A stretch of 64,000 bases of DNA from Ignavibacteriota bacterium (GCA_963801355.1 CAWDEM010000008.1:2880001-2944000), one strand, 5' to 3'. Shown: positions 15,324-63,216, numbered from the stretch's first letter. A program made the numbers and translations. Notes: generated from the letters alone by a model not told the origin.

Positions 15324-15338
15324 TGGCATGGCTCTTGC
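15324..15338 (+). promoter_or_regulatory. sigma54 (-24/-12) promoter of hoxEFUYH
   Basis: TGGCAT-GGCTC-TTGC fits TGGCAY-N5-TTGC; intergenic, correct orientation. Confidence 0.75.
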
Positions 15339-45172: not shown

Positions 45173-45207
45173 GAGTTCATTCCCGAAAGATATGCGGACA
45201 TCACCAC

Positions 45208-47801: not shown

Positions 47802-47810
47802 TGGTCGCAA

Positions 47811-48014
47811 TCAGTTCGTCGGCGTGTAGCCCGCCTCCGTGATGGCGGCACGCACGCGAACCAGGGCGGCCTCCGGGTCGTCGGCGCTGAACACCACCGC
47901 CCCCACCCGCACGACTTTAAGCGAAATGCCGGGGACCTTCTGGAGTGACTCCTTCACCGTCATCACGCAGTGCTGACAGCTCATCCCCTCAATGCGAATC
48001 TCACGCTCTTGCAT
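47811..48014 (-). CDS. copZ: HMA-domain copper chaperone (CopZ-like)
   Basis: IEGMSCQHC...EAGY; AGGA RBS; adjacent to copA. Confidence 0.85.
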   Translation of the reverse strand: MQEREIRIEGMSCQHCVMTVKESLQKVPGISLKVVRVGAVVFSADDPEAALVRVRAAITEAGYTPTN

Positions 48015-48038
48015 ATCTTGTCCTTTCCCGGGATACAT

Positions 48039-48073
48039 GTGTTCGTACCAGTAATGGTGTTCGTGCCAGTAAT
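48039..48073. repeat. 17-bp direct repeat (period 18) over the copZ start-site region
   Basis: gtgttcgtaccagtaat 48039-48055 and gtgttcgtgccagtaat 48057-48073. Confidence 0.8.
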
Positions 48074-48099
48074 ATAGAGACAGCCCGCCGAAGGTGCAA
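48071..48099 (-). promoter_or_regulatory. sigma70-type promoter of copZA
   Basis: TTGCAC-17 nt-TATATT. Confidence 0.6.
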
Positions 48100-48110
48100 A
48101 CTGACGGACT

Positions 48111-48139
48111 TTGAAGTTCTGTCGCTCCTTCTGTATCTT
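48111..48139 (+). promoter_or_regulatory. sigma70-type promoter of the CoA-pyrophosphatase gene (probably leaderless)
   Basis: TTGAAG-17 nt-TATCTT, 6 nt before ATG 48146. Confidence 0.55.
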
Positions 48140-48145
48140 GTATCC

Positions 48146-48736
48146 ATGCTCTGGTCATCCGATGATATCTGCAATCTTCTTGCGCACGCCCGGCGACAGA
48201 CGGCCCGGAAGAGTATTGTGCGCGAAGGACTTATCCCCTCCGCCGTCCTCGTCCCGCTGGTGTCCATACAAGGCGAGACCCACCTGCTGCTCACGCGACG
48301 GACGGATACGGTGCAGACGCATAAGGGACACATCGCGTTTCCCGGAGGCATGGTGGATGAGGATGATCGTGACAGAACTGCCACGGCATTGAGGGAGACG
48401 AAAGAGGAACTCGGGATCGCTGCCGATGAAATCCTTACCATCGGCCTGCTTGATGACCTGGCCACGCCGACCGGATTTGTTATCACTCCTGTCGTCGGAT
48501 TCCTGGGCAAAGCGCCCGACATGTCGCCGAGCGCCGCGGAGGTCGCCGAAGTCTTCTTTGTTCCGTTGTCCTTTCTGGGGGACGAACGACATCGCCGCCG
48601 CGAAACCAGAATCACCGAGTTCGGTCCGCGCGAGACGTGGCGCTATGACTACGAGGGCCGTGTCATCTGGGGGGCCACGGCGGCGATCATTCGCGATCTC
48701 ATGAGCCTGCTGCACCCTTCATCCTCCGGCCGGTGA
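48146..48736 (+). CDS. CoA pyrophosphatase (NudL/PCD1-like NUDIX)
   Basis: SAVLVPL, LLTRR..THKGHIAFPGG, TALRETKEELG, IWGATA. Confidence 0.88.
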   Translation: MLWSSDDICNLLAHARRQTARKSIVREGLIPSAVLVPLVSIQGETHLLLTRRTDTVQTHKGHIAFPGGMVDEDDRDRTATALRETKEELGIAADEILTIGLLDDLATPTGFVITPVVGFLGKAPDMSPSAAEVAEVFFVPLSFLGDERHRRRETRITEFGPRETWRYDYEGRVIWGATAAIIRDLMSLLHPSSSGR

Positions 48737-48737
48737 A

Positions 48738-49337
48738 TCATCCCGCCATCGCAATTTCCGAAGGAACAAAGCGATCACCCACGGCATACCCTCTGGCACT
48801 CGCGTAGTCTTTCAACCGTGAGAAGAGGATCGACCGCGCCCTGTGCAAACGGGAGCGCACGGTGCCGATGGGGATATTCAGGAGCTGGGCGATTTCTTCA
48901 TACGGCATATCTTCAAGATCTCGCAGCATGACCACGCTCTTGAATTTGTCGGGCAATGCCGCGATCGCCCCGGCCATCTCATCGTCGAACATACGGCTTT
49001 CCATCATGTCCCGGAGATCGGGCATATCCTTTCCCGATGTCGACATCTGGTACGGTGTGATCTGCTCGTCAAATTCCACCATATCCGGCTGGCGGTGAAC
49101 CCGGCGATACTCGTTGATGAACGTGTTCTTCATGATCCGGTAGAGCCACGCTTTGGCATTCGTGCCGGCCTCGAACTTGTCGAAGAAACGAAAGGCCTTT
49201 AAGTAGGTATCCTGGAGAAGATCCGCGGCCTGTTCGCGGTTCCCGGAAAGGTACATGGCGTAGTTGAACAGCATATCCGTGTACGGCATCATTTGCTTCT
49301 TAAACATCTCTTGGCGTTTGACATCGATCAGTCTCAT
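48738..49337 (-). CDS. ECF sigma factor, SigH/SigR-like
   Basis: DLLQDTYLKAFRFFDKFEAGTNAKAWLYRIMKNTFINEYRR; YEEIAQLLNIPIGTVRSRLHRAR. Confidence 0.92.
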   Translation of the reverse strand: MRLIDVKRQEMFKKQMMPYTDMLFNYAMYLSGNREQAADLLQDTYLKAFRFFDKFEAGTNAKAWLYRIMKNTFINEYRRVHRQPDMVEFDEQITPYQMSTSGKDMPDLRDMMESRMFDDEMAGAIAALPDKFKSVVMLRDLEDMPYEEIAQLLNIPIGTVRSRLHRARSILFSRLKDYASARGYAVGDRFVPSEIAMAG

Positions 49338-49413
49338 TGTTCTTTCGCTCCTTCCTCTTGCCCCGGTAGGGTTGAATCATCTGAAATGTGCGGTTTGGAC
49401 GATTTAATATTCA

Positions 49414-49440
49414 TAACGCAACCCTGGCAAAAAGGGTTCC
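49414..49440 (-). promoter_or_regulatory. ECF (SigH/SigR-type) autoregulatory promoter
   Basis: GGAAC-17 nt-CGTTA upstream of the sigma gene, just past the upstream terminator. Confidence 0.65.
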
Positions 49441-49443
49441 CGC

Positions 49444-49478
49444 AAAAAAAGGGGCCGCCCCGGAGTACGGAGCGGCCT
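49444..49478 (-). terminator. Intrinsic terminator of the exbB-TPR operon
   Basis: AGGCCGCTCCG-tactc-CGGGGCGGCCC stem followed by T7. Confidence 0.8.
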
Positions 49479-49511
49479 GAGAAAGCCTTCGAAATCCATT
49501 CAAAGAGGCCT

Positions 49512-51341
49512 TTATTTGGCCCCCGGACAGCCAATCCGCTCAATTGACTTCTTTGCATCCTCATTTCGTGGATCGAGCTTGAGTACCTTCCGCAACTCGC
49601 TGCAGGCTTCCTCCTGGAGCTTCTTGTTCACGGCGTCTTCTCCTTCTTTCCGTGACCGGATAAGTCCTTGCGCAAGCCAGAGGTGCCCTTGAGAATTGCC
49701 GGGGTCCAGATCAATCGTCCGCCGGAACAGACGGATGCACTCTTCGATTTTCTTGTCATTATCTGCGGCGTCGCCCGTTGGATCGAGTGTCTGCATCACC
49801 GCCTGGCCCCAGGTGAGTCGCAGGCTGGCATCTTCGTATCCGTATCCTGAGGCACGCCGGAATGATTCGACGGCCTGTCCGAACTGCTGCCTCCGGAAGT
49901 AGTACATGCCCAGGAGGTAGTGTGCTTCGGCGGCCTCCTTTTTGTATTTGTCCACATTGGGCCCGATCTGCTTCAGCACCGAATCATATTCCGCCTTGGC
50001 GTTGTCAAGCGAATCGACTTGCGTATAGTATCTGGCCAGCCAGAGCCGAGCGGGGAGATAATCCGGCCGCTTTTCGATCGTCGTCACGAGCAGTTCGCGC
50101 ACACGCGGGAAATTTTTTGTCTGCATGTGCGATGCCGCGGCATTCAGATACGCTGCGAGGGACATCGACCGGGGATCGCAAGCGATGCGTTTGTCGAACA
50201 TTGCCGCCGCCTGTTGATAGTCCTTCTTCTTCATGTAGATCGATCCAAGACTGAAGTACGCATCGCAATTCGTCGAGTCCATCGTGATTGCTTCGGTGAG
50301 CGATTTGAGCGCCTCGTCGTCGCGCCCCAGCCGGAACAGCGACAACCCGTACTTGTCCTGATCTTCCGGTAAGAACGCCTTCCGGCGTTTGAGCGCTTCA
50401 TATGACGCGAGCGCATCCGCAAATTCTCTCGTCTCCACCTGGGATTGCGCCAGCAGGCGCCAGACATCGGCATTTGCGGAGTCGAGTTTCAACGACCGTT
50501 TGGCTTCTTTCACGACTGCTGAATCATCACCCGCACCCGACAGCGCCTTCACATACAGGACCGACCCTTCGACGGATTTCGGCCGCAACCCCGTATACGT
50601 CTTCAGCGCGGGCACCGCCTGCTTGTACATCTTCGCGCGGAGATAGATATTCCCTTCCTGTACATACGCTTCGGCATTTGTTGAATCAAGTTTGATGATT
50701 TCGTCAAACTGCTTCACGGCTTCGGTGTATTGACGGTTCTTCTCATGGAACTTCGCAAGTTTGACATGCCGTTCGGTTGAGAGGGAATCGAGGTCAATGG
50801 CCTTCTGATAATTCATCACAGCCATCGGCACGACATTCTGTTTGGCAAACGCATCGCCCAGAGCGTCATAGATCGAAGGATCATCCGGTGTGGATTCCTT
50901 CGCGCGGGTCAGGTGCAGGATGGCGCCATCCAGGGAATCGGCGGCCAGCAGTGCCTTCCCGTACGATGCCGCGACAGCGGCATTCTTGGGCGCGAGTTTC
51001 ATCACCCGGCGGAACCGTGCGATCGCACCCTGCGTATCGCCCAGCTTCAACTCGCACTCGCCGAGATACCGGAGCGATTCGACGTTTTCATCGTCAATTC
51101 TGACCGACTCATCAAAATTCTTCTTCGCTTCGGCAAATTGACCGCGGGAAAACTTGATAACACCGAGATAATAGTGCACATCCCCGGTCTTCTGCCCTGC
51201 CTTGAGCGCTTGCTCCAGATTGGTGATCGCTGTGGCGGTATCTTTGACTCCCAACGCAACCTTCGCTTTGGACAAATAATCCTGGCCGTAACCAATACTC
51301 ACGACACACCCGAGGAGCAACACCGCGATGGTTCGTTTCAT
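49512..51341 (-). CDS. Exported tetratricopeptide-repeat protein
   Basis: Signal peptide; many TPR units (HYYLG, YDALGD, AYFSLG, LKLDPRN). Confidence 0.9.
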   Translation of the reverse strand: MKRTIAVLLLGCVVSIGYGQDYLSKAKVALGVKDTATAITNLEQALKAGQKTGDVHYYLGVIKFSRGQFAEAKKNFDESVRIDDENVESLRYLGECELKLGDTQGAIARFRRVMKLAPKNAAVAASYGKALLAADSLDGAILHLTRAKESTPDDPSIYDALGDAFAKQNVVPMAVMNYQKAIDLDSLSTERHVKLAKFHEKNRQYTEAVKQFDEIIKLDSTNAEAYVQEGNIYLRAKMYKQAVPALKTYTGLRPKSVEGSVLYVKALSGAGDDSAVVKEAKRSLKLDSANADVWRLLAQSQVETREFADALASYEALKRRKAFLPEDQDKYGLSLFRLGRDDEALKSLTEAITMDSTNCDAYFSLGSIYMKKKDYQQAAAMFDKRIACDPRSMSLAAYLNAAASHMQTKNFPRVRELLVTTIEKRPDYLPARLWLARYYTQVDSLDNAKAEYDSVLKQIGPNVDKYKKEAAEAHYLLGMYYFRRQQFGQAVESFRRASGYGYEDASLRLTWGQAVMQTLDPTGDAADNDKKIEECIRLFRRTIDLDPGNSQGHLWLAQGLIRSRKEGEDAVNKKLQEEACSELRKVLKLDPRNEDAKKSIERIGCPGAK

Positions 51342-51343
51342 GA

Positions 51344-52267
51344 CTATTTCACCTGTTCTGATGTAAGTTGGATGAGTCGCACCGGCATCGTGACCGGCAC
51401 CAGCCCGCTGTTCAGAAGGACTTTCTGTCCCTGAATGCCGGTTGCAAAAGAAATAAAGCCCAGCGAAAGATCTCTGTTGAGTTCGCGCGTATAGATCTTT
51501 ACAGGCGTGCTAATGGGATAATATCCTTTGTACACATATCCCTGGACGGGAGTATAGGCTTTGCCGATTGCTTGCGTCGAATCAGCCGCCACGCCCGGCC
51601 GTGACAGTCCCATAATACGGAATTCCTGGTCCACCCCTTTGAGCCATGCGACATTCACCACGCCGATGGCGTTGCGCCGTGTCCGCACATATTCCACCAG
51701 GTTGCCGCTGCCGGAAATCACGCTGGCCGACAGGGCGAATTTCTTCCCGCGGAGCACGAGCGCCCGGAGAATTTCATTGGTGCTGGAGTTGACATCGCTG
51801 ACGGCGATATCGATATTCCCGCCGGCCTTCCACTGGGGCCAGGCGGTCACTGCGCCCGACAGAATACTATCCACCTGGCCGACGCGCAGCTCCTTCACCG
51901 GATTGTCGGGGTGGGCGATGATGGCGATCGCCGATTGCGCCACATGGTATTCTTCGAACCAGGTCTTGGCGGCGGTGAGGCTGTTGCGCTCTTCGGCATT
52001 GAGCGAACGCGCAATCGCGATGACGTGCACACTGTCATTGACAAAATTCGCCGTCGCCTCCCGCGCTTCCACGGACCGCACATCCACCCGTGCATCGGGA
52101 TATTGCGAATGAAACTCCTCCGCAACCAGACGCAGGGCGGGATAGACGGCTTCGTCGCAGTCGATCCGGAGTGAACCCCTGGTGATGTTCGTCGAACCGG
52201 GCTCGCGGGTGCATCCCGCAAGCAGGAGCACCAGAGACGCACAGAGAGAGAGTATGAATCGGTTCAT
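51344..52267 (-). CDS. PstS-like substrate-binding lipoprotein (no ABC permease nearby)
   Basis: Lipobox LLLAGC; AIAIIAHPDNPV, NSST, NAIGVV, YPISTP, GQKVLLNSGLVP. Confidence 0.8.
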   Translation of the reverse strand: MNRFILSLCASLVLLLAGCTREPGSTNITRGSLRIDCDEAVYPALRLVAEEFHSQYPDARVDVRSVEAREATANFVNDSVHVIAIARSLNAEERNSLTAAKTWFEEYHVAQSAIAIIAHPDNPVKELRVGQVDSILSGAVTAWPQWKAGGNIDIAVSDVNSSTNEILRALVLRGKKFALSASVISGSGNLVEYVRTRRNAIGVVNVAWLKGVDQEFRIMGLSRPGVAADSTQAIGKAYTPVQGYVYKGYYPISTPVKIYTRELNRDLSLGFISFATGIQGQKVLLNSGLVPVTMPVRLIQLTSEQVK

Positions 52268-52458
52268 GGTCGTCTCGGTCGATTGAACGTGATGACAAAC
52301 CGATATAGCCCGTAAAGAACTATGACAGCACCGAAGATGATCCGGTACTCATCCGGCAGGTCCCACCTCACCGGAACGAGCACACCGAGCATAATCAACA
52401 CACCACACGCCATCGCTCCGGCCAGGAGCACGAGGATCACATAGCGAACGATCTGCAT
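52264..52458 (-). CDS. Small 2-TM membrane protein
   Basis: MQIVRYVILVLLAG...IFGAVIVLYGLYRF; ATGA overlap with the next gene. Confidence 0.65.
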   Translation of the reverse strand: MQIVRYVILVLLAGAMACGVLIMLGVLVPVRWDLPDEYRIIFGAVIVLYGLYRFVITFNRPRRP

Positions 52459-52494
52459 CGGTCCGTCTGCTTCAAGAACCCCGGGCCCAAAATA

Positions 52495-52532
52495 CCGGGA
52501 GAGAGGCGGGGGTTCCGACCTCCCTCCCCGGT
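52495..52532. terminator. Imperfect hairpin after tonB
   Basis: CCGGGAGAGAGG / CCTCCCTCCCCGG arms. Confidence 0.35.
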
Positions 52533-52553
52533 GACAAACACTCTGGCGTCCCG

Positions 52554-53297
52554 TTACTTGCGGTCGGCCAGCTTGAACCGGAACGGGATGGAGACCCACA
52601 CCGCCACCGGCCCGTTGTTCATGTACGCGGGAGTGAACACCCACTGCTTCGCCGCTTCGATCGAGGGCTCGTTGAAGATTTCGGCGTCGCTTTTGAGGAT
52701 CACGACCTGTTTCGGTCGTCCCTCTTTGTCGACCCAGATCTTCACCCACACCTTGCCTTCGAGGCCCGCGCGCATGGCAAGTTCGGGGTATTTCGGTTCC
52801 ACTTTCTTCACGGGAACCGGTTCTTTCTCCACCGGGACGAAGTCCGCCGGAGGTGCGTCCTCATCGATCCTGATATCCTGCTCGATTTCGACCGCACCGT
52901 CGGTGCCTGCACCTTCGACGATCGGTGCTACTGTCTGGCTCATCTCCGTCTGGGTGGCCATGGTTTGTTCGGCGCTGACCTCAGCGTCAGGCACCGGGAC
53001 GGGAGCACCCACTGTGGGTTTCGCCGAAGGGGCCGAAACCGCGATGGGCGGGGGTGTATTGGCGCTCTGGATCGACGGAGGTGGGCCAAGATCACTGTAC
53101 TTCATGATCCTGACGGTCACCATCGGAGGTTCTTCCTCACTCAAGATGCCGACCAGATAGTACGTGCCGAAAAGGGCGAAATGGATCGCCACGGCGATCG
53201 CAAAGCCTGTCAGCCAGTACTTCTGGTACACCTTCTTGAGTTCGACCGCGCCGTACTGGGCACCTTTATAGGTCGCTGCCGCAGCTACTGCTGGCAT
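52554..53297 (-). CDS. tonB: Energy transducer TonB
   Basis: YGAVELKK, TM helix with His (AVAIHF), Pro-rich linker, TonB-C YPELAMRAGLEGKV...WVFTPA. Confidence 0.9.
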   Translation of the reverse strand: MPAVAAAATYKGAQYGAVELKKVYQKYWLTGFAIAVAIHFALFGTYYLVGILSEEEPPMVTVRIMKYSDLGPPPSIQSANTPPPIAVSAPSAKPTVGAPVPVPDAEVSAEQTMATQTEMSQTVAPIVEGAGTDGAVEIEQDIRIDEDAPPADFVPVEKEPVPVKKVEPKYPELAMRAGLEGKVWVKIWVDKEGRPKQVVILKSDAEIFNEPSIEAAKQWVFTPAYMNNGPVAVWVSIPFRFKLADRK

Positions 53298-53315
53298 GGT
53301 ATCTACCTCCTTCCG

Positions 53316-53810
53316 TTATTTCACTTTCGCCATCAATGCCTTGTCGGCATCGAGTAGCGGCGCAATACTGAAACGCTGGATCCCAGCCGAATTCAGTTCA
53401 TCGATGGTATTCACCATCATCGCATACTTCCCCCCTCTGTCTACTTTGACAAGCACGGTCAGCTTGGGGTTTGCTTGCGATTTTTCCACCAGAAACTTCT
53501 GCATTCCCGCACGTTCGAGTCTCTTGGGCGACTCAATCCCCGTATTCCAGAACATTTCGCCCTTTTCGTTGATGCGGAGGGTCAACAAATTCGATTCAGC
53601 GATCTCCACCTTCACATCCTTGTCGGGCGGAAGATTGATTTCCATTGTCTGCGGACGCGACATGCTCGTCGTGAACATGAAGAACGTCAACAGGAGAAAA
53701 GCCACATCCACCAGCGGCGTCATGTCAATGCGGATGCCGAGGCGGCGGCCTTTCTTGCGCTTTTTGCCACCTTTCTTTTCGCGTGGCGCAGCTACATCTC
53801 CACCAGCCAT
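53316..53810 (-). CDS. exbD: ExbD/TolR family protein
   Basis: RIDMTPLVDVAFLLLTFFMFTT. Confidence 0.92.
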   Translation of the reverse strand: MAGGDVAAPREKKGGKKRKKGRRLGIRIDMTPLVDVAFLLLTFFMFTTSMSRPQTMEINLPPDKDVKVEIAESNLLTLRINEKGEMFWNTGIESPKRLERAGMQKFLVEKSQANPKLTVLVKVDRGGKYAMMVNTIDELNSAGIQRFSIAPLLDADKALMAKVK

Positions 53811-53819
53811 GTCCGCCTC

Positions 53820-54374
53820 CTATTCTCGAGTCGGTCCGGCGAGCTCGGTCACCAGACTGAATCGTGTGATTTGTGTCTTCTGCAGGATGTCCATGACATC
53901 CTCGGCAATCCCGAAATCGGCCTCTTTGTCACCCTTGATCACGGTGACCAATTTCGGATTCGCCGTACGGGCCTGAACCAGGTAGTTCGCCAGCTGGCTC
54001 TTGGGAACGGGATAACTCAGCGACAGGTAGTAATTGTCCTTGAACCTCGTTGGTTCGAGCTTCCCCTCGACAAACACATCGACGTTCTTGTATCCCGTGA
54101 AAAGCCGTTGCCTCAGAATTTGCGAGTCCAGACCCATCCAGATATGGGTCGTGTCGTTGCCGATGACCGTGGATTCCTTTGCAATGTTGATCGTAATCAC
54201 GTTCGACTCGGGCAGTTTGAACTCCGAATGGGAGGAGGGAAGCAGAATCGTCACCTCTTCCTGGGGTTTGAACTGCGTCGTCATCATGAAAAACGTCAGC
54301 AGCAGGAATGCCACGTCCACCAGCGGCGTCATATCAATACGGACGCCTGCTCTGTGCGGTTTGAATTTCGGCAT
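53820..54374 (-). CDS. exbD: ExbD/TolR family protein
   Basis: RIDMTPLVDVAFLLLTFFMMTT, IKGDK. Confidence 0.92.
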   Translation of the reverse strand: MPKFKPHRAGVRIDMTPLVDVAFLLLTFFMMTTQFKPQEEVTILLPSSHSEFKLPESNVITINIAKESTVIGNDTTHIWMGLDSQILRQRLFTGYKNVDVFVEGKLEPTRFKDNYYLSLSYPVPKSQLANYLVQARTANPKLVTVIKGDKEADFGIAEDVMDILQKTQITRFSLVTELAGPTRE

Positions 54375-54391
54375 AACGTGCGTCTCCGCGC

Positions 54392-55174
54392 TTAGTCGTT
54401 CGTGCGGGTGTTGAGAATCTGCACGACGTTGTAGCTGGCTTCGTCGATCATGTACGTGAAGTTATCCACCTTCGTGACAAAGAAGTTGTATGCCACGATA
54501 CCGATGATCGCCGCGAGGAGCCCGAGTGCGGTGTTGATCAGCGCTTCGGAAATCCCGATCGACAGCTGGATGGCGTCAGGAGCACCGCCTGCTTTTGCCA
54601 GAGCGGTGAATGCACGGATCATACCGATAACCGTGCCGAGCAGACCGAACATGGTGGCGATGGACGCAATGGTGGAAAGTGCAATGAGGTTGCGTTCAAG
54701 AAGCGGGGTCTCAAGACTGGTGGCTTCTTCAATCGCGCGCTGCGTTTCCGCCATCTTCTTCTGGGCGTCAAACGACTTCTCCCCCGCAACGGCCTTGTAG
54801 CGCTCGAGACCGGTGCGGATAATGTTCGCAGCGGACCCGCGCTGGGCATCACATTCCTTGATGGCATCGTCGACCCGCCCGTTCATCAAATGGCTCTGAA
54901 TGCTTTTCAGGAATACGGTGATCGAACGCTTGCCGTTGGCTTTGCGCAACGAGAACGTGCGCTCAAAAACAAGTGTGATGTTCATCAGAGTGAGACCGAT
55001 AAGAATCGGCACAACGACCCCGCCCGTGTACACGGTCCCGAGGAGGTTGTCAGGCACAGTGCGGACTTCGCCGTTCTTGAAGTTCGCCGGGTTGCCCAGC
55101 ACGAACATGTAGATCGCGATGGCCACAAGCGCCGTGACAATGATGACGGTGGTAAGGAAAATTGACTGCTTCAT
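54392..55174 (-). CDS. exbB: MotA/TolQ/ExbB proton channel
   Basis: ATMFGLLGTVIGMIRAF, GISEALINTALGL; GGAG RBS. Confidence 0.92.
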   Translation of the reverse strand: MKQSIFLTTVIIVTALVAIAIYMFVLGNPANFKNGEVRTVPDNLLGTVYTGGVVVPILIGLTLMNITLVFERTFSLRKANGKRSITVFLKSIQSHLMNGRVDDAIKECDAQRGSAANIIRTGLERYKAVAGEKSFDAQKKMAETQRAIEEATSLETPLLERNLIALSTIASIATMFGLLGTVIGMIRAFTALAKAGGAPDAIQLSIGISEALINTALGLLAAIIGIVAYNFFVTKVDNFTYMIDEASYNVVQILNTRTND

Positions 55175-55211
55175 TGCTGCACTCCTTGTGTGGAAGTTGG
55201 TACTTCGTGGA

Positions 55212-55571
55212 CTATGCTTGCTGCTCTGCGCCGAAGGCCTTGACGGCCTCTTCGCGGGTCTCCGCCACGTCGAAGACCAGTGTAAGTTTGGTGATGACAA
55301 AAATGTTGTTGATGTTCTTGTTGATCTCACATAGTTTGACGGACCCCTTGTTCCTGGAGAACGTCGTGTGCGCTGACACCAGCACGCCGATCGCCGTGCT
55401 GTTCAGGTATGTCACCTTGCCCAGATCGATAATGAGCTTCTTGGTGCCCTGTTCAACAAAATCGGCAACCGCGCTGCGGAGTTCATCGGTTTCTTCCCCA
55501 CCCACAAGCGAACCTTTAACTTCGATCACACCGATCTTACCGCTCTGGAGTGTTGTGGTCTTGACGGCCAT
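55212..55571 (-). CDS. STAS-domain anti-sigma factor antagonist (paralog B)
   Basis: KLIIDLGKVTYLNSTAIGVLV; GGGAGG RBS. Confidence 0.9.
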   Translation of the reverse strand: MAVKTTTLQSGKIGVIEVKGSLVGGEETDELRSAVADFVEQGTKKLIIDLGKVTYLNSTAIGVLVSAHTTFSRNKGSVKLCEINKNINNIFVITKLTLVFDVAETREEAVKAFGAEQQA

Positions 55572-55627
55572 GGTTCCTCCCAAGGACTTGAGAAAAAGGA
55601 GAGTGAAGTGATTCTGTCAGGAGTGAG

Positions 55628-55642
55628 GCAACAAGAGTGCCA
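55628..55642 (-). promoter_or_regulatory. sigma54 (-24/-12) promoter of the STAS-exbB-exbD-exbD-tonB operon
   Basis: TGGCAC-TCTTG-TTGC, exact consensus spacing, 57 nt upstream of ATG 55571. Confidence 0.8.
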
Positions 55643-55741
55643 TCTCTGCTTCAGCCGGACCCGCATCACTAACCCACAATGAACGCGTGGTTTGACCCCG
55701 CCACTTCAACCTCAACTTTGAGTGTCGCTCCGAATACGTAA

Positions 55742-55828
55742 TGCAAAATGCACGACCTCTATCATCATGCCCCCCCATGTGCTGCAGGAGCCCGAAAACA
55801 GGTCATTTGCGGCGTCGTGCAAAATGCA
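55742..55828. promoter_or_regulatory. Pair of candidate enhancer sites
   Basis: Identical TGCAAAATGCA at 55742-55752 and 55818-55828; flanks TGCACGAC / GTCGTGCA also form an inverted repeat. Confidence 0.6.
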
Positions 55829-55831
55829 ATT

Positions 55832-57145
55832 CTAGAGGCCGTACTTTTTACGCTTGCGCCAGAGCGTCGCAGGATCGATCCCCAGTATCGATGCAGCTTC
55901 ATCAAGATCTTTGGCCATCCGCAATACCCTGATGATGTGCTGCTGCTCAATATCCTCCAGCGACATCGTGCCGTTGGCGGGAGCCATGAGATCCTGGAAC
56001 TCCTCCGGCAGGTGAAACAGCTGAATGGATTGCCCGCGCGCAAGAATCACCGCCCGCTGAATCACGTTTTCCAGTTCCCTGACATTCCCCTTCCATGGAT
56101 ATGCCTGGAGCGCGGACAGTACTCCCGGCGCTATCTCCGCACTGCTGCCGGCCTTCGTCAGAAAGTGTTGTGTAAGGAGAGAAATATCCTCCTGCCGTTC
56201 GCGCAACGGAGGCAGTTTGAGTCTCACCGCATTCAGCCGATAGAACAGATCCTCCCGGAACGAGCCTGCAGCCACCGCTTCTTCAATATCGCGGTTGGTC
56301 GCCGCGATAACGCGGACGTCGACCTTGCTCGTCATCGTTTCGCCCACCCGTTCAAACTCCCGGTTCTGGAGGAACCGCAACAGCTTGACCTGTGTCGGCT
56401 GCGGGATTTCCCCTATCTCATCCAGAAAAATCGTTCCCCCGTCTGCTGCTGCGAACCGCCCCTGCCGGTCCTTGACCGCTCCCGTGAATGCCCCTTTGAC
56501 ATGGCCGAACAACTCGCTTTCCAGCAACGTCGGCGCCAGCGCCGTGCAATTCACGGTGACGAAGGGCTTTGTGCTGCGCGCGCTGTTGTCGTGAATCAGA
56601 TGTGCCAGCAGCTCTTTGCCGGTGCCGCTTTCGCCCTCGATCAGCACGGAGATGCCTGATGCCGCCACCTGTATGGCCAGGTCGATGATGCTGCGCAACT
56701 TCTGGCTTCGCGTCACGAGCATCCCCGTGTCGCGCGTGCGTCGCAGTTCCTCCTTCAGCAGCCGCACTTCCGTCTTCAGCCGGTGGTGATCGTACACTTT
56801 GTCCATGAACCGCTGCAGCTCTGCAAACTCGAACGGCTTCTGCAGGTAGTCGAACGCGCCCAGCTTCATGGCTTCCACGGCGGAGTCAATGCTCCCGTGG
56901 GCGGTCATCAGCACGACAGTCATATCCGGTGCCAGCACCCGTGCTTCGCGCAACAGCTGGATGCCGTCAATGGGCTGCATTTTCAAATCAAACAACCCGA
57001 TGTCAAAGTGTTCCGCCTTCATTCCTTCCACCGCCTGCAGGGGATTCAGAAATGCCGTCACTGCAAAACCGTTTGTCTCGAGTGCGATGCGCACGGTTTT
57101 CTGAATGTTCTGCTCGTCATCCACCAACAGGATTGAGGCTTTCAT
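55832..57145 (-). CDS. sigma54-dependent response regulator (NtrC family, AlgB-like)
   Basis: Receiver (VDDE, FDLKM, QKPF); GESGTGKE, intact GAFTGA, FLDEIGE, WKGNVRELEN; HTH ASILGIDPATLWRKRKKYGL. Confidence 0.92.
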   Translation of the reverse strand: MKASILLVDDEQNIQKTVRIALETNGFAVTAFLNPLQAVEGMKAEHFDIGLFDLKMQPIDGIQLLREARVLAPDMTVVLMTAHGSIDSAVEAMKLGAFDYLQKPFEFAELQRFMDKVYDHHRLKTEVRLLKEELRRTRDTGMLVTRSQKLRSIIDLAIQVAASGISVLIEGESGTGKELLAHLIHDNSARSTKPFVTVNCTALAPTLLESELFGHVKGAFTGAVKDRQGRFAAADGGTIFLDEIGEIPQPTQVKLLRFLQNREFERVGETMTSKVDVRVIAATNRDIEEAVAAGSFREDLFYRLNAVRLKLPPLRERQEDISLLTQHFLTKAGSSAEIAPGVLSALQAYPWKGNVRELENVIQRAVILARGQSIQLFHLPEEFQDLMAPANGTMSLEDIEQQHIIRVLRMAKDLDEAASILGIDPATLWRKRKKYGL

Positions 57146-59052
57146 GCGATCTCTCCCGGCGCCGCGGTGAGTGCGTGCACCGTGTGCACTGGCACCACGA
57201 AGGCAAAGGTACTTCCCTTACCCGGTTCGCTTTCCGCCCAGATGCGGCCTCCGTACATCTGCACGATCTGCCGTGCAATCGCAAGGCCGAGACCGACGCT
57301 CCCCGGCGTGGCGTCCGGCGTCTGTTTCACCTGCACGAACTTTTCAAAGATCCGTGAAAGATATTCCGCCGGAATCCCCACACCGGTATCCTGCACCTCA
57401 AGCCGGATGCCGCCGTCGTCGCGCCGGCCGCGCACGGTCACCGTTCCGCCGGCCGGTGTATACTTCAGCGCGTTGGTAACCAGATTCGTGATGACCCAGG
57501 AAATTTGCTGTTCATCCGCATGCAGCGGCGGAAGGCCGTCCGGCACATCCGCGACCAGCTGCACATTCTTCTCCTGGAATTGAATCTGCAGCGGACGCAA
57601 TGTCGCATCGACGACCTCCTTGAATTGCAGCTCCTCTTCACGCAGCTGGATGCTCCCGGACTCGATCTTGGCCAGTTGCAGCAGCTCCCGCGCAAGCTTG
57701 GTCAGCCGATGACAGTCTTCCTTTGCAGACGTGACCAGTTCTTTCTGACGTTCCGTCAGCGGCCCCAGGATCTCCTGGTTGAGGATGTCCACGCTCATGC
57801 TGATCGATGTCACCGGCGTCCGGAATTCATGGGAGACCGTGGCAATGAATTCCGATTTCATCCGGTCGAGTTCCTTGAACTGCGTGATGTCCTGTAATAG
57901 CAGGAGAACACCGTACAGCCGTCCTTCGCGGTCGCGCAGCGTCGTCAACTTCGGGCGAAAGTACAGGGTCTTGCCCTGCCGCTCGAATTGCAGGAACCCG
58001 ACCGTCTGCTCCTGGTCGTTCCCCCGGCTGTCGGCCGCACGCGTGATCAACCCCAGTATCCGTGCATCCATGATGACATCCGGCAGCGGCTTCCCGATGG
58101 CCTCCATTTCATCGACGCCGAAGAGGTCTGCAACCGTCTTGTTGATGTGTATCACCCGCATCGCCTCGTCGCTCATAATCAGACCATCGGCGATGCTGTC
58201 GACAATCACCTCCGACTTCTTCTTCTCCGACAGGATCTTGTCGATGTTCATCTCGTCGTACTGCCGGAGCCGCTCGGTCATTTTGTTGAACTCCCGGCTG
58301 AGCTGGCCGATCTCGTCGTCGGAGAGCACGTCAATCTTGAGATCAATTTTTCCCGCTCCGATCTGCTTGACGCGGTCGGTCAGCAATTCCGCGGGTGTGA
58401 TGAACGACCGGATGAGCCAGGCGGTGGCGATAATGCTCAGGATGAGACTGATGATGGAGGCCATCATCGATCCGAAGACCGTCTTGTTTGCCAGCGAATG
58501 CGTTTGCGGAATAGCGTTGGAGAGGCCCGCCTGGTTGATTTCAAAGAGCCTGAAGCACAGGTCACGGAGCTCATCGGAGACCGGGCGGACACGCCGGTAA
58601 TAGTAGTCCGCTGCCCCTTCGAACGCCCCCTGCTTGATCCGGGCGCTCATCGAGTCGCCAAGAAGTGTATACTGGGTGTAGGAAGCCCGTATGGAATCGC
58701 GCAAGCGTTCCTGTCCGGGAAGGTCCACGGAACGGACGGCCTGGTCGTACCAGAAGAAGAACGAATTCCGGTTCTCCGTCCAGTTCTTGAAGAGGTCGCG
58801 GTTCTCCGTGAGGCTGCTGTCCCCCGACGGCATTTCACCCTGACTCGCCACCAGAAGCGCGTTGTCCTGCCGTTCCAGCGACTTCATCATGTTCTCGGCG
58901 GCCAGGACGCTTTGATAGTTCTCGCGGATGATTGTGGTGACGCCGGAGGCGATTCCGTAGAAATTGTAGATCGCCCAGTAGCTGCTGGCCAGATTCAGCG
59001 TCACCAGCACGGCAAACGTCCAGACAATTTTGGCCCGGATGGTCTTGATCAC
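57142..59052 (-). CDS. Sensor histidine kinase (TM-periplasmic-TM-HAMP-PAS-HisKA-HATPase; KinB-like)
   Basis: DEIGQLSREFNKM, VSHEFRTP, NLVTNALKYT, DTGVGI, GLGLAI. Confidence 0.92.
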   Translation of the reverse strand: MIKTIRAKIVWTFAVLVTLNLASSYWAIYNFYGIASGVTTIIRENYQSVLAAENMMKSLERQDNALLVASQGEMPSGDSSLTENRDLFKNWTENRNSFFFWYDQAVRSVDLPGQERLRDSIRASYTQYTLLGDSMSARIKQGAFEGAADYYYRRVRPVSDELRDLCFRLFEINQAGLSNAIPQTHSLANKTVFGSMMASIISLILSIIATAWLIRSFITPAELLTDRVKQIGAGKIDLKIDVLSDDEIGQLSREFNKMTERLRQYDEMNIDKILSEKKKSEVIVDSIADGLIMSDEAMRVIHINKTVADLFGVDEMEAIGKPLPDVIMDARILGLITRAADSRGNDQEQTVGFLQFERQGKTLYFRPKLTTLRDREGRLYGVLLLLQDITQFKELDRMKSEFIATVSHEFRTPVTSISMSVDILNQEILGPLTERQKELVTSAKEDCHRLTKLARELLQLAKIESGSIQLREEELQFKEVVDATLRPLQIQFQEKNVQLVADVPDGLPPLHADEQQISWVITNLVTNALKYTPAGGTVTVRGRRDDGGIRLEVQDTGVGIPAEYLSRIFEKFVQVKQTPDATPGSVGLGLAIARQIVQMYGGRIWAESEPGKGSTFAFVVPVHTVHALTAAPGEIA

Positions 59053-59762
59053 AGCAACACCCCCACATAGGGCCCGTGGGCCGTCACGCGGTAGTTCAGC
59101 CGGCCGTCAGCCAGGCTCCAGGTCTGGTGGCGGAACCTGTAGCCCACAACGATGCCGTCCCCGATATGAATGGTGCGCATAACGAGTGACACCTCACCTG
59201 TCACCGCGAGAGAAGAACCGTTGCCGGTGTTTAACCCCTCAAAACTGAAATGGTAGATGCCGGCGGCGCGGGCGGAGAATTCCGTGCCGGCGTCCGTGAA
59301 GCGTACCCCCAGTCCGGTCCCCAGACCGAGGCTTGCCACATTGAAGTGATCGCGTTCGTTGCCGGGGGACTCCGCTTTGGTGTAATCCAGCGAGAGCAAC
59401 ACGGGCATCACCAGCGCGGCGGGGCGGCCGCCGACGAGCGGCGTTTCGGTGCTCAGGGTGGTGCCGAAGAATACGGCGTTCCGCTTCACCCCCTTGAGCG
59501 TGTACCGTGTGTAGCCGAATTGTACATCCAGCATTCCCTGGTGGTACCCGATCATGGGCATCCAGTTGCTGAACGCTATGGCAAGAGAATCACCACCGGT
59601 GTATCCCGCACGGGGCGCAAAGTCGCGCAGCATCGCGCCGGCGGACAGATACCGGGCCTCCCGATCGCTGTATTCCCTCGGTGTTTCGTATTGGGCGAAA
59701 GCACCGGCGGCAACCGCCAGGCACGCTGCCGCAACCATAACCGTCCTGCGCACTCCTCTCAT
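59049..59762 (-). CDS. Exported hypothetical protein, beta-strand-rich
   Basis: Signal peptide ending AFA; amphipathic strands; 4-nt overlaps with both neighbours. Confidence 0.72.
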   Translation of the reverse strand: MRGVRRTVMVAAACLAVAAGAFAQYETPREYSDREARYLSAGAMLRDFAPRAGYTGGDSLAIAFSNWMPMIGYHQGMLDVQFGYTRYTLKGVKRNAVFFGTTLSTETPLVGGRPAALVMPVLLSLDYTKAESPGNERDHFNVASLGLGTGLGVRFTDAGTEFSARAAGIYHFSFEGLNTGNGSSLAVTGEVSLVMRTIHIGDGIVVGYRFRHQTWSLADGRLNYRVTAHGPYVGVLL

Positions 59763-61084
59763 CGGGTCTCCTGCTGCACAGCACTCTCCGCCGGCAGTTT
59801 CCTCAAACGCAGACTTTTGATCTTGATCCCGTCAACCGCTTCAACAATCCCCTGCCATCCGCCGAGACGCAGCGCTGTGCCGCGCTCGGGTATACGGCCG
59901 AAGGTGTGAGTGAGGTACCCATTGACGGTGACCGCATCGGTGGATGTCGGCACGATCGAGAACTGGCGGGAGAAATCCAGCATCGGCATCGTGCCGTCAA
60001 CAATGAACTCGGTCTCGCTGATTTTTTGCACGTAGACAGGCTCGATGTCGAATTCGTCGCGGATCTCGCCCACCAGTTCCTCCAGAACATTTTCCAGCGT
60101 CACGAGCCCGGCCGTCCCGCCGTATTCGTCGACAGCGATGGCCATCAACACTCTCTTTGCCAGAAAAGAGTTGAGAATACGTTCCAGCGACATGCTCTCG
60201 GGCACGAACGGCATCTCCCGCTTGATGTCCAGCAGGCGGGTCCCGGGTCCGGTCTCCCCCTTCAGCTTGATGAGATCCTTCAGGTGCACCATGCCCACCA
60301 CGTTGTCCAGATTCCGGTCGCACAGCGGGTAACGCGTGAACTGGGTGTCGATAGCCACTGCCAGATTCTGTTCAATCGTCTTGTTCGTGTCGAGCACGGC
60401 CACATTGGTGCGCGGGACCATCACCTGACGGACGGTCCGGTCGCGGAGTTCAATTGCCCGGAGGGAAATGCTCTTGCCGGTGGACGTGATGGCTTTCCCC
60501 TTGCTCAGCATCAGCCGGAGTTCCTCTTCCGTTTGCGCCATTTCGTGCTCGCCGACCGGTGAGACGCCGATGAGGCGGAGAAACGTGTTTGCGCTCTTGT
60601 TCAGAAACCAGATGAAGGGCCGGAACAACCGAAAAAACAGATCCAGTGGCCGGGCTATTGCGAGGGTTGTGGACCGGGCATATTGAATCGCCAGCCACTT
60701 CGGGGATTGCTCCCCAAGCACGATATGGAGATATGTGATAACCGTGAATCCCAGGGCAAACGCAACCGTATGGACGACTGCGGACTCCGCGATCCCCAGG
60801 AACCCGAAGAGGGGCATCAATATTCCGGCCACAAACGGTTCGCCGATCCAGCCCAGCCCGAGGCTCGTCATGGTGACTCCCAGCTGGCAAGCGGAGAGGT
60901 AGGAGTCAAGATGGCCAATAATGTGTTGCGACAGCTGTGCACGCCGCGAGCCTATTTTAGCCAGAGGTTCAATTTGTGTCGATCTCACCTTGACGATCGC
61001 GAACTCAGCGGCAACAAAGAAGCCGTTGAGAACCACGAGAGCCAGGATACCGAACGCCGTTACGAAAACCTCTGTAAAGCTCAT
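59759..61084 (-). CDS. CNNM/CorB-type (DUF21-CBS-CorC/HlyC) Mg2+/Co2+ transport family protein
   Basis: NGFFVAAEFA, CQLGVT, VLGEQSPK, VMVPR, TRYPL, VDEYGGTAGLVTLENVLEELVGEI; GGAGG RBS. Confidence 0.92.
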   Translation of the reverse strand: MSFTEVFVTAFGILALVVLNGFFVAAEFAIVKVRSTQIEPLAKIGSRRAQLSQHIIGHLDSYLSACQLGVTMTSLGLGWIGEPFVAGILMPLFGFLGIAESAVVHTVAFALGFTVITYLHIVLGEQSPKWLAIQYARSTTLAIARPLDLFFRLFRPFIWFLNKSANTFLRLIGVSPVGEHEMAQTEEELRLMLSKGKAITSTGKSISLRAIELRDRTVRQVMVPRTNVAVLDTNKTIEQNLAVAIDTQFTRYPLCDRNLDNVVGMVHLKDLIKLKGETGPGTRLLDIKREMPFVPESMSLERILNSFLAKRVLMAIAVDEYGGTAGLVTLENVLEELVGEIRDEFDIEPVYVQKISETEFIVDGTMPMLDFSRQFSIVPTSTDAVTVNGYLTHTFGRIPERGTALRLGGWQGIVEAVDGIKIKSLRLRKLPAESAVQQETR

Positions 61085-61124
61085 TCTCCTCCGGAAGGCC
61101 GTGGGACTGAGAATCGAATCGCCG

Positions 61125-61157
61125 ACAAAAGTTACACGAAATGCGGGGGGAAAGCAA
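61125..61157 (-). promoter_or_regulatory. sigma70-type promoter of the CNNM-HK-RR operon
   Basis: TTGCTT-17 nt-TAACTT. Confidence 0.45.
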
Positions 61158-61164
61158 GGTAACC

Positions 61165-61189
61165 AATTGTGGATAGTGGATCCACAATT
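61165..61189. terminator. Hairpin built from heptamer units after the GH13 gene
   Basis: AATTGTGGAT-agtgg-ATCCACAATT. Confidence 0.45.
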
Positions 61190-63030
61190 CACAATTGATT
61201 AGTAAACACCCGGTATCCCTTCCCTCCCAGCGTTAAGGAGACTTTACCTCCCGCCGCGGGAACGGTCCAATCTAACCCGGCAAAAATCTCGCGGTATTTC
61301 AGTTTTGATCCGGAGGGGAACCCACCGGCCGCAGGCATGTGCAGCTTCACCCGTACGGGGGCGTCGCCGACGTTCACTGCAACAAACACACGTCGCTTTC
61401 CGTCAACACGCAGAAACGCAAACACTGATTTCTCCTGATCGCCCCTGACACGAATGAACTCGCCGCGAGGGAGGGCACTGTTGGTGCGCCGGAGATCGAA
61501 GAGTCTTTTGTACATGTCGCCGAGTTCGCGCGGACGCATCCAATCCACATCCACCTTTTCAAACAGACTCAGTTTCCTGTCATTCGCCACTTCTTCACCC
61601 GTATAGATCATCGGGACGCCCGGGAGCGTGTTCACCAGCACGGTCGCAAGCTTAAGACCGGCTTTCCCGAACTTCTCCACCGCCGGTGCATCCCATGCGT
61701 TCTTGTCATGGTTTGTGGTAAACCGCATGCGCAGCGCGCCGCCGGGGAACTGCATTCCTTCGGTCGTCAGTATTTGATCCAGCAGGCTGACGGGGCGCCG
61801 GCCCGAAAGGAGCGGGAGAAACGCATCGTAGACGTTCCAGGAGTAGGTGAGATCGAACGCCTTGACATGGTGTTCCGGCAGGGCTCCCTCGGAGAGCATC
61901 ATGATCGATTTGACGCTGTCCAGTTTGGCGCGGGCGGTCTCCCAGAAGTCCGTCGGCACCATCTCCGCCACATCGCACCGGAATCCGTCGATGCCGATGT
62001 CGCGCACCCAGTACAACATCATGTCGATCATATAGCGGCGGAGCCCCGCGTTGCTGTAATCGAGGTCCGCAACATCGCGCCAGTCGGCATTGGGAGCGAT
62101 GATTTCGCCTTTGACGTTTTTCGTGAACCACCCGGGGTGCTCGCCGAGAAGCTTGCTGTCCCATGACGTGTGGTTGGCCACGAGATCGATGATGAGCTTC
62201 ATGCCCTGCGCATGCACCGTGGCAAGAAGCCTGGTAAAATCGTCGAGTGTGCCGAATTCGGGATTGATCCCGTAGTAGTCCTGCACTGCATACGGGCTCC
62301 CCAGAGTTCCCTTACGGTTCTTCAGTCCCACGGGATGGATCGGCATGAGCCAGAGCGTCGTAACGCCCAGCTGCTTGAGTTCCGGGATCCGCTTTTCGAG
62401 ACCCGCGAATGTCCCTTCGGGCGAAAAAGAGCGCAGGTAGACCGAGTAGATAGCCCCGTCGCGTACCCAGTCGGCGCTCTTCCGGGGTTTCAGGTCCGCG
62501 TAGGGACTCCTGAGAAGGACGCCGATGCTCTTGCTGTCGATAAGGGTGATCGGCCTGTAGATGCCACCCCCGCCGTCGTTGTCCTTGACCAGCACGACGA
62601 TGGTGTTGTTCCCCTTCCGGACCGCGGACGCGATGTCGAGAGCAAACGGATCGCTGTACCCCGTGTGTTCACCGACGTTCTTGCCGTTCACCCAGACTTC
62701 CGCCTCGTCGTCCACCCCGGCGAAGTGGATGCTCAACGGGATATCCGTGCGACTAACCGTGAAGGTCCTGGCGAACCATCCCCAGCCGTCGTACGCCGCC
62801 ATGCCCGGGTAGCCTTCCCAGAAATTCGGCGTCACCACCTGCTGCCATGAAGCCCGATCCCGGCCTGCCGCGTACCACTCCTGCCGCACCCCCACTTTCA
62901 TCGAATCGACCATGAACCGCCATTCACCGTCAAGCGACATGCGAAGTGCGGGTTTCTGAGCAGGCGCCGTGGTCATCATCATCAGCCCTCCCACGAGGAC
63001 AATAATCGGTTTCATCGTTTTCATTGTCAT
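61189..63030 (-). CDS. Exported GH13 alpha-amylase-family enzyme with N-terminal GH2-N-like sugar-binding domain
   Basis: SLDGEWRF..FAGVDDEAEVWVNGKNVGEH..GGIYRPI; GH13 regions DLVANH, GFRCDVA, MLSEG, TNHD; start among 63030/63024/63015. Confidence 0.88.
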   Translation of the reverse strand: MTMKTMKPIIVLVGGLMMMTTAPAQKPALRMSLDGEWRFMVDSMKVGVRQEWYAAGRDRASWQQVVTPNFWEGYPGMAAYDGWGWFARTFTVSRTDIPLSIHFAGVDDEAEVWVNGKNVGEHTGYSDPFALDIASAVRKGNNTIVVLVKDNDGGGGIYRPITLIDSKSIGVLLRSPYADLKPRKSADWVRDGAIYSVYLRSFSPEGTFAGLEKRIPELKQLGVTTLWLMPIHPVGLKNRKGTLGSPYAVQDYYGINPEFGTLDDFTRLLATVHAQGMKLIIDLVANHTSWDSKLLGEHPGWFTKNVKGEIIAPNADWRDVADLDYSNAGLRRYMIDMMLYWVRDIGIDGFRCDVAEMVPTDFWETARAKLDSVKSIMMLSEGALPEHHVKAFDLTYSWNVYDAFLPLLSGRRPVSLLDQILTTEGMQFPGGALRMRFTTNHDKNAWDAPAVEKFGKAGLKLATVLVNTLPGVPMIYTGEEVANDRKLSLFEKVDVDWMRPRELGDMYKRLFDLRRTNSALPRGEFIRVRGDQEKSVFAFLRVDGKRRVFVAVNVGDAPVRVKLHMPAAGGFPSGSKLKYREIFAGLDWTVPAAGGKVSLTLGGKGYRVFTNQL

Positions 63031-63031
63031 C

Positions 63032-63206
63032 TTCAATCCCCGATCTTCACTCTTTGACCTTCAATCTTCGATCTCTAATCCTCAATCTTCGATCTTCGAT
63101 CCTCAAACTTCGATCCTCAAACTTCGATCCTCAATCTTCAATCTTCGCTCTTCAGTCTTCGGCCTTCAATCGTCGATCTTCAATCCTCAATCGTGGATCT
63201 TCAATT
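63032..63206. repeat. Heptamer tandem array, 25 units, consensus YTCRATC
   Basis: ttcaatc cccgatc ttcactc ... ttcgatc ctcaaac ttcgatc ... ttcaatt; 175 bp in unbroken 7-nt phase. Confidence 0.92.
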
Positions 63207-63216
63207 GATCTTCTTC

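Follow-up and report, generated by a model that had tools for sequence, protein, structure and literature searches.

Here we analysed 64,000 nucleotides (nt) of DNA from an Ignavibacteriota bacterium (GCA_963801355.1 CAWDEM010000008.1:2880001-2944000), referred to throughout as the window, and in it a block of genes at positions 49512..61084 in which a two-component system of the KinB–AlgB type lies directly upstream of an operon that encodes a STAS protein and an ExbB–ExbD–ExbD–TonB motor. Two enhancer boxes and a sigma54 promoter between the activator gene and the operon are conserved with the activator in relatives and decay where the kinase–activator pair has been excised; the promoter survives relocation. 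Judged from sequence, the AlgB-family sigma54 activator very probably controls the operon, which is a Ton/Tol-like cluster of the type of BT2664-BT2668 of Bacteroides thetaiotaomicron. Each part is of a known kind; what is new is how they are wired together. The cluster spans gut Bacteroides to Ignavibacteria-like lineages, and the host group is mostly uncultured. Since the regulator is conserved and its DNA site defined, it offers a handle on the role of the motor, and the signal of the kinase would tell when the motor is needed.

Gene content of the locus

All genes of the block are encoded on the minus strand. The upstream arm consists of a CNNM/CorB-family membrane protein (59759..61084; Pfam CNNM, CBS and CorC_HlyC), an exported protein (59049..59762), a KinB-like sensor kinase (57142..59052) and an AlgB-family sigma54 activator (55832..57145), and the three 4-nt overlaps by which an earlier note on this DNA had coupled these four genes were confirmed. 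The exported protein has no Pfam match; its AlphaFold2 model (predicted local distance difference test score, 89.9) is a 10-stranded outer-membrane beta-barrel of the OpcA/omptin shape, with fold matches to OpcA (Z 18.5, root-mean-square deviation (rmsd) 2.8, 187 aligned) and to OmpT-type proteins (Z 17.7). The kinase comprises a transmembrane segment (TM), a periplasmic four-helix bundle, a second TM and HAMP, PAS, HisKA and HATPase domains. The activator is of REC-Sigma54_activat-HTH_8 architecture with GAFTGA at residue 218.

The downstream operon begins with a stand-alone STAS protein of the SpoIIAA/RsbV type (55212..55571), followed by an ExbB/TolQ-type motor subunit (54392..55174; PF01618), two ExbD/TolR-type subunits (53820..54374 and 53316..53810; both PF02472), a TonB-type force transducer (52554..53297; TonB_C, with TIGR01352 above its cut-off), a small two-helix membrane (2-TM) protein of 64 amino acids that overlaps the next gene by 4 nt, a PstS-fold lipoprotein (51344..52267; PBP_like_2) and an exported tetratricopeptide repeat (TPR) protein (49512..51341; Pfam TPR). 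This order is the one given in the earlier note, and the Pfam matches (STAS, ExbB, two ExbD, TonB_C, PBP_like_2 and TPR) agree with it. Two sets of coordinates were corrected: the start codon conserved for ExbB is the ATG at 55174, and the 2-TM gene spans 52264-52458. An intrinsic terminator with a 10-bp stem and a T run (49477-49453, minus strand) closes the operon, as had been proposed.

Enhancer boxes and a sigma54 promoter

The 260-bp gap between the activator and STAS genes holds two identical palindromic boxes of the form TGCA-N3-TGCA (TGCAAAATGCA, plus-strand reading), of which the 64 kilobases (kb) contain exactly two copies. The distal box (55818..55828; 55818-28) lies 4 bp past the activator stop codon, and the proximal box (55742..55752; 55742-52) lies 76 bp from it. 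They stand 176 and 100 bp upstream of TGGCAC-TCTTG-TTGC at 55642-55628 (minus strand; predicted +1 near 55616), which is the sole exact instance of TGGCAC-N5-TTGC in the window; the boxes, the promoter and both distances had been described correctly before. A Markov model leads us to expect about 0.006 TGCA-N3-TGCA sites and about 0.0004 sigma54 boxes in the gap. A -24/-12 box that has activator sites upstream of it, near enough for looping, is the layout of an enhancer-dependent sigma54 promoter.

The boxes carry the motif of AlgB. The high-throughput SELEX (systematic evolution of ligands through exponential enrichment) seed listed for Pseudomonas aeruginosa AlgB is ATCGTGCANNNTGCACGAT (PMC8041468 Supplementary File 2), and in the part of the P. 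aeruginosa SELEX table that was available TGCANNNTGCA occurs in no entry besides AlgB (PMC8041468). In the 64 kb, the AlgB matrix ranks the proximal box first (18.8 bits) and the distal box second (16.5 bits), and the A/T spacer of the SELEX motif agrees with the natural boxes (TGCA-WWW-TGCA). With the RpoN SELEX matrix, the promoter at 55628..55642 is the second-best match in the window. The best is a second sigma54-like box at 15324-15338 (plus strand), upstream of 15406, which precedes hoxE, a gene of a bidirectional hydrogenase operon, and suggests that sigma54 is in use in this genome.

Conservation in relatives

A scan of GTDB genomes with ExbB returned 308 pattern matches, of which 200 were confirmed, and the best 80 of these 200 were analysed. 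Their titles name Bacteroidota, Ignavibacteriota, Kryptoniota and metagenome-assembled genomes with labels of this kind, and the denominators given for each gene count loci with contigs that are long enough. STAS lies immediately before exbB in 74/74 loci, in keeping with its proposed place as first gene, and the downstream genes are kept throughout (exbD1 75/75, exbD2 72/72, tonB 69/69, lipoprotein 61/61 and TPR 54/54). A 2-TM gene was found in 52 of 64 loci, and a terminator-like hairpin follows the TPR gene in 26 of 52.

For promoter scoring, we dropped 6 loci that start at exbB and 2 with less than 300 bp upstream; the remaining 72 loci comprise 46 with an activator within 2.5 kb, 24 without and 2 that are undecidable. 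The promoter test, YGGCAY-N5-TTG plus a perfect box 70–195 bp upstream, passes in 0 of 3,634 background 600-bp windows. The sigma54 box and at least one perfect AlgB-type box are present at every one of the 46 activator-adjacent loci, 43 of which have the full two-box layout; conservation of the -24/-12 and TGCA-N3-TGCA motifs in relatives, which had been set as a test of the proposal, is thus observed. The sigma54 box has the full TTGC in 32/46 cases. In the 48 loci with full architecture the boxes are spaced 75–80 bp apart (73–82 bp allowed), or about seven helical turns. In 35 of the 46 loci with an adjacent activator, the locus-best match of the AlgB matrix falls upstream of STAS; with the NtrC, PilR and CbrB matrices this is so in 4, 2 and 5 of the 46, respectively. 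Kryptonia-type loci (L075, L077-L079) have a receiver-only gene inserted after the sigma54 promoter, about 400 bp upstream of STAS. A single box is kept there, at 107 bp above the sigma54 box, and the receiver-only gene and then STAS come after it.

Loss of the promoter with the regulator

The 24 loci without an adjacent activator fall into two classes. In 15, the kinase–activator pair is excised and flanking genes remain (in 14 loci CNNM, the barrel or both; in L067 an APC permease), and the promoter is kept in none of them. In the other 9, the entire upstream block is replaced and the promoter is kept in all 9. On an ExbB tree of 65 rows, which includes 14 of the 15 excision loci, excision and adjacency differ in the same direction in 6 of 6 independent pairs (p = 0.031). 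This repeated decay of a promoter after regulator loss is a natural experiment in promoter evolution.

The same loci bear on another explanation, in which a different activator of the genome serves the boxes and the promoter and the adjacent pair is no more than a neighbour from which transcription reads on. The 9 of 24 loci that keep the promoter without an adjacent activator would fit this explanation, as would the scarcity of terminators between activator and STAS. The decay of the promoter in 15/15 loci from which the pair is excised, the match between an adjacent AlgB-family protein and an AlgB motif, and the position of the distal box, mostly 4–83 bp past the activator stop, all speak for the adjacent activator, and we consider service by a different one improbable.

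Several points weigh against control by the adjacent activator and the circuit built on it. The loci are the best of the confirmed set; the -12 C is missing from 14/46 sigma54 boxes, and the relaxed pattern was picked after inspection. The division of the activator-less loci into 15 and 9 was made post hoc, and the unsplit tree test, with 4–5 of 8 pairs in the same direction and 0 opposite, is not significant (p = 0.06–0.125). That the 9 rearranged genomes encode the activator elsewhere is assumed. A terminator-like hairpin separates activator and promoter in only 5/43 loci, which makes read-through possible. The box flanks are unlike those of AlgB (position 4 is T at 0.60 here and G at 0.81 in AlgB; non-core r = 0.60), and no named AlgB was among the matches listed in plasmid searches with the activator. 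Both ends of the circuit, signal and output, are read from the neighbourhood alone, which points weakly to ion or envelope stress as the signal of the kinase.

In the circuit that we propose, the kinase with its four-helix-bundle sensor would set the phosphorylation of the activator, as adjacency and family suggest, and like KinB it may act mainly as a phosphatase. Activator dimers would bind the two TGCA-WWW-TGCA boxes about seven helical turns apart, for which motif identity and co-loss argue strongly. By the established enhancer mechanism, the AAA+ ring would loop to sigma54-polymerase at 55642-55628 and open it, and a single transcript, matching the observed gene order, would then yield STAS, ExbB, two ExbD, TonB, the 2-TM protein, the PstS-fold lipoprotein and the TPR protein. 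We regard the steps from binding of the boxes by the adjacent AlgB-family activator, through firing of the sigma54 promoter, to the operon transcript as likely.

A putative overlapping promoter and a rejected RNA hairpin

Upstream of STAS, 14 of the 15 excision loci have a TTGCAW-N17-TAYATT element resembling a sigma70-type promoter, and where the distal box is intact its left half is the -35 of this element. The overlap of distal box and -35 occurs in 12/46 activator-adjacent loci compared with 17/561 background TTGCAW sites. On the tree, there was no significant link between the sigma70-type promoter and loss of the sigma54 promoter (1–2 of 6 pairs the same, 0 opposite, p 0.5–1); the element mostly predates that loss. 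In many relatives the distal box would thus double as a sigma70-type -35, and activation would swap a basal for an induced promoter, the activator occluding the former as it fires the latter; the window itself has no such element and has lost the basal promoter. The arrangement recalls glnAp1/glnAp2 of Escherichia coli, where NtrC acts at a sigma54 enhancer promoter with an overlapping sigma70 promoter. Shared features are the paired upstream activator boxes, the -24/-12 promoter about 70–115 bp below them and, in relatives, a sigma70-type promoter over the distal box. The locus differs in its activator family and motif and in the absence of a sigma70-type promoter from the window, and the promoters here are predicted ones.

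Relatives also show an inverted pair like sites of integration host factor (IHF), TAA-N4-TTG and CAA-N4-TTA, at offsets of +19 and +31 from the distal box, which is decayed in the window. Matches to the IHF consensus occur at these two fixed offsets between the boxes in 13 and 11 of 48 loci. They overlap the -10, and part of the IHF signal may therefore be architectural.

Paired palindromes could also be the arms of an RNA hairpin that ends the upstream transcript, instead of sites for a protein. The stretch in the window does fold box against box (z = -2.99), and the predicted RNA fold pairs the boxes in 31/48 loci; however, a palindrome present in two copies pairs automatically. Non-core box positions do not covary (4.12 of 11 complementary, compared with 4.06 ± 0.21 for shuffled partners), Rfam gave 0 matches in 44000-64000 and the box spacing is fixed near seven helical turns. 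We rejected the hairpin, which we consider very improbable, on the lack of covariation at non-core positions.

Comparison with AlgB and KinB

The REC-AAA+(GAFTGA)-Fis helix-turn-helix (HTH) architecture of the activator is that of the AlgB family. GAFTGA is present in 35/44 activator relatives and GSFTGA or GAYTGA in the other 9, and the recognition helix is almost without variation among them. Automatic names from the Joint Genome Institute (JGI) include AlgB on many of 120 listed matches to the HTH region of the activator and KinB on many close relatives of the kinase. The C terminus of the activator is likened in the earlier note to that of Pseudomonas AlgB, and the AlgB-like identity proposed earlier is borne out by the JGI names on close relatives and by boxes equal to the P. 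aeruginosa AlgB SELEX motif. Five plasmid activators (40–45% identity) with other recognition helices, which are other activator types and served as negative controls, have no adjacent box; one has a single box 9 kb away.

The kinase fits the KinB-type layout (TM-sensor-TM-HAMP-PAS-HisKA-HATPase, with an HExxTP H-box) and lies beside an AlgB-type gene. Its H-box is HEFRTP (H408), as in 36/38 extracted relatives, and places a proline five residues after the phosphohistidine. In KinB, P390 is reported to be required for phosphatase activity (PMC6932827). Retention of this proline suggests that switching the activator off may be as much the role of the kinase as switching it on.

KinB–AlgB of P. 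aeruginosa thus shares with this locus a REC-AAA+-HTH activator with GAFTGA, a DNA core with an A/T spacer, and a HAMP-PAS kinase with proline five residues past the phosphohistidine. The two differ in gene order, kinase–activator here and algB–kinB as given for P. aeruginosa, and in the flank base beside the motif core. The predicted target here is the motor operon, which lies directly downstream and has a canonical sigma54 box, and no phytochrome partner was seen near this locus. In the available part of one study, KinB was found only in pseudomonads, in Acinetobacter baumannii and in Enterobacter cloacae, within a BphP-based set (PMC6932827). The locus would give AlgB-type proteins a clean sigma54 target and suggests that the AlgB recognition code has been kept across phyla.

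Sensor and passenger genes

The periplasmic domain of the sensor is a generic four-helix bundle (fold matches up to Z 14.8, rmsd 2.1, 120 aligned). Pfam 4HB_MCP_1 matched it weakly in 26/36 members; there was no KinB_sensor Pfam match, and the 50 matches listed for the model did not include the KinB sensor structure. CNNM lies upstream of the kinase in 21/38 activator-bearing loci with enough sequence, as does the barrel. Both are missing or partly missing in the other 17 and remain when the pair is lost; the barrel staying with CNNM after pair loss indicates that both are passengers. Together with the 9 loci that keep the promoter without a nearby activator, this argues against the complete local circuit of the earlier note, of whose overall interpretation the AlgB-like activator, the conserved boxes and sigma54 promoter, and STAS–exbB hold and the closed circuit does not. 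Most examined loci without CNNM have APC permeases (one with a Usp domain), and three have a CLC channel. These neighbours, with CNNM itself and a distant Bacteroidales relative of the kinase behind kdpABC, are what hints at ion or envelope stress. In one clade, APC permeases divergent from the kinase replace CNNM (L040 620-2335, L056 3878-5902 and L067 2753-4321, all minus strand).

The kinase also resembles the partner of a split KdpD in Bacteroidales, with two full-length plasmid matches in Parabacteroides (26–28% identity), one of which follows kdpABC. That system differs in its low identity, its shorter sensor, the recognition helix of its linked activator and its target, a potassium pump. 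By eye, the kdp leaders (L081 7146-7400 and L082 4258-4560) contain TTCA-N3-TGAA-like repeats and a TGGCAC-N5-TGGC box, and the repeats look like a variant of the AlgB-type code.

The STAS protein

The STAS protein scores 60.5 bits on TIGR00377 (cut-off, 53.45). Aligned to SpoIIAA structures, its Ser58 occupies the phosphoacceptor position of SpoIIAA, and the preceding aspartate is replaced by Asn57; both are invariant (56/56). We lean towards an anti-anti-sigma protein that is co-induced, is switched by phosphorylation and has its partners encoded elsewhere. Another possibility is a clutch, likewise phospho-switched, which would bind ExbB at its cytoplasmic domain and gate the motor. STAS precedes exbB in 74/74 loci, including those without the regulator and the Kryptonia-type loci with the inserted receiver-only gene, and is conserved about as strongly as ExbB (mean column identity, 72% versus 76%); moreover, neither an anti-sigma kinase nor a SpoIIE-type phosphatase was found among 40 recurrent neighbours scanned. 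A clutch is nevertheless unlikely: the Bacteroides finegoldii cluster has the same motor genes and no STAS, the protein has an ordinary SpoIIAA/RsbV-type fold with the canonical serine, and an extracytoplasmic function (ECF) sigma factor within 3.2 kb past the TPR gene in 21/44 loci is a possible other client.

Output of the motor operon

The motor has conserved transmembrane residues (ExbD Asp and TonB His), and the ExbB of the window scores higher on tolQ than on exbB models, under the cut-off in both cases. Tol-Pal was rejected: the operon ends at the TPR gene and terminator, with no TolB or OmpA/Pal domain among its genes. According to the available part of one source, Bacteroidetes are without identifiable tol-pal loci, and there are other motor systems, with TPR genes and with tolR-like genes in pairs, for which no function is known (PMC12204202).

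The exbB-exbD-exbD-tonB-binding protein-TPR order and the homologous ExbB, ExbD, binding protein and TPR protein are those of BT2664-BT2668-type Ton clusters. The B. finegoldii cluster shares the gene order (ExbB 44%, binding protein 30% and TPR 23% identical to those of the window), but it has no STAS and no annotated 2-TM gene, its 1,050 bp upstream have neither a sigma54 box nor an AlgB box, and its TonB gave no match with that of the window at E < 1e-3. To BT2664-BT2668 of B. thetaiotaomicron (TonB5) the likeness is by order, length and annotation only, BT2665 included.

The PstS-like protein probably does not bind phosphate, to judge from its residues. It scores 95.5 bits on TIGR02136 (cut-off, 206.6), and the GSTS-type (N-terminal) and GSS-type motifs of solved phosphate binders align with DE(S/A)V and ARE, with an invariant glutamate at the lost Ser/Thr phosphate motif. 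Cys19, Glu39, Arg69 and Arg87 are invariant (57/57), and beyond the PstS fold the protein closes with a conserved strand, T-M-P-V-R-L-V. Phosphate uptake was rejected, given the remodelled ligand-site residues and the absence of a permease among the 40 recurrent neighbours scanned. These are 40 of 98 cluster representatives, the remainder being mostly shadow frames; they include no TonB-dependent receptor or ABC permease, consistent with the earlier remark that neither is adjacent.

From the neighbourhood alone, we see about an even chance that the output is an envelope-maintenance module, in which TonB would partner the lipoprotein and TPR protein of its own operon during envelope or ion stress, and not iron uptake. 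Complex prediction of the TonB C-terminal domain with the lipoprotein and the TPR protein gave scores of 0.01 and 0.00 against a mark of 0.32, which have no bearing either way. The operon could instead be an inducible general-purpose TonB system for TonB-dependent transporters elsewhere, with the lipoprotein and TPR protein as accessories. This reading draws on a TonB_C match over the curated cut-off, on the conserved motor residues and on reports that tonB genes of Bacteroides act in trans and redundantly (PMC10350073), the role of most TonB homologues of Bacteroides being called an open question there. It is a real possibility that we nonetheless doubt: the main nutrient TonB of Bacteroidales (B. 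thetaiotaomicron TonB4, B. fragilis TonB3 and PG0785) is described in a different locus (PMC10350073, PMC11467351, bioRxiv 10.1101/2025.11.18.689179), BT2664-68 are reported to drop about 3-fold under iron depletion (PMC10434189), and the lipoprotein (61/61) and TPR (54/54) genes always follow tonB, also in B. finegoldii.

Taken to its furthest, envelope maintenance would be the work of a stress-induced machine, switched on by the AlgB-type promoter swap, in which ExbB-ExbD-ExbD′-TonB pulls the C-terminal strand of the TPR-held PstS-fold lipoprotein, and not nutrient transporters, with STAS as a phospho-controlled ExbB clutch. The whole of this is a long shot; if true, we would know of no earlier regulated clutch on a Ton/Tol-type motor, and the orphan BT2664-BT2668-type cluster would gain a function.

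The novelty claimed for sigma54/STAS control of this motor cluster stands in that we found no published description, with most subscription journals outside our coverage; the available parts of PMC3162934, PMC12780092, PMC7881567, PMC8638967 and PMC9723704 contain nothing on this regulation. The nearest report concerns Flavobacteriia, where a link of sigma54 to TonB genes is predicted and the enrichment is described as unconfirmed (PMC12316311); to that link, this locus adds an activator and an enhancer.

Additional features

The ECF sigma factor of the window (48738-49337, minus strand) lies beyond the operon terminator. A membrane H+-pyrophosphatase gene is found downstream of the operon in 16 loci (L040 12038-14203 and 15 others), often 150–500 bp past the TPR gene, and may be a proton-gradient source beside the proton-driven motor. 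Six loci (L028, L045, L051, L065, L066 and L068) have a second, divergent tonB copy after the first. Between tonB and the 2-TM gene of the window, a G+C-rich hairpin (52470-52553, minus strand; z = -1.68) is a possible attenuator or stabiliser of the transcript and could set the ratio of motor to accessory products. Ahead of the CNNM operon, a sigma70-type promoter candidate seen by eye, TTGCTT-N17-TAACTT at 61129-61157 (minus strand), resembles in style the element that overlaps the distal box in relatives.

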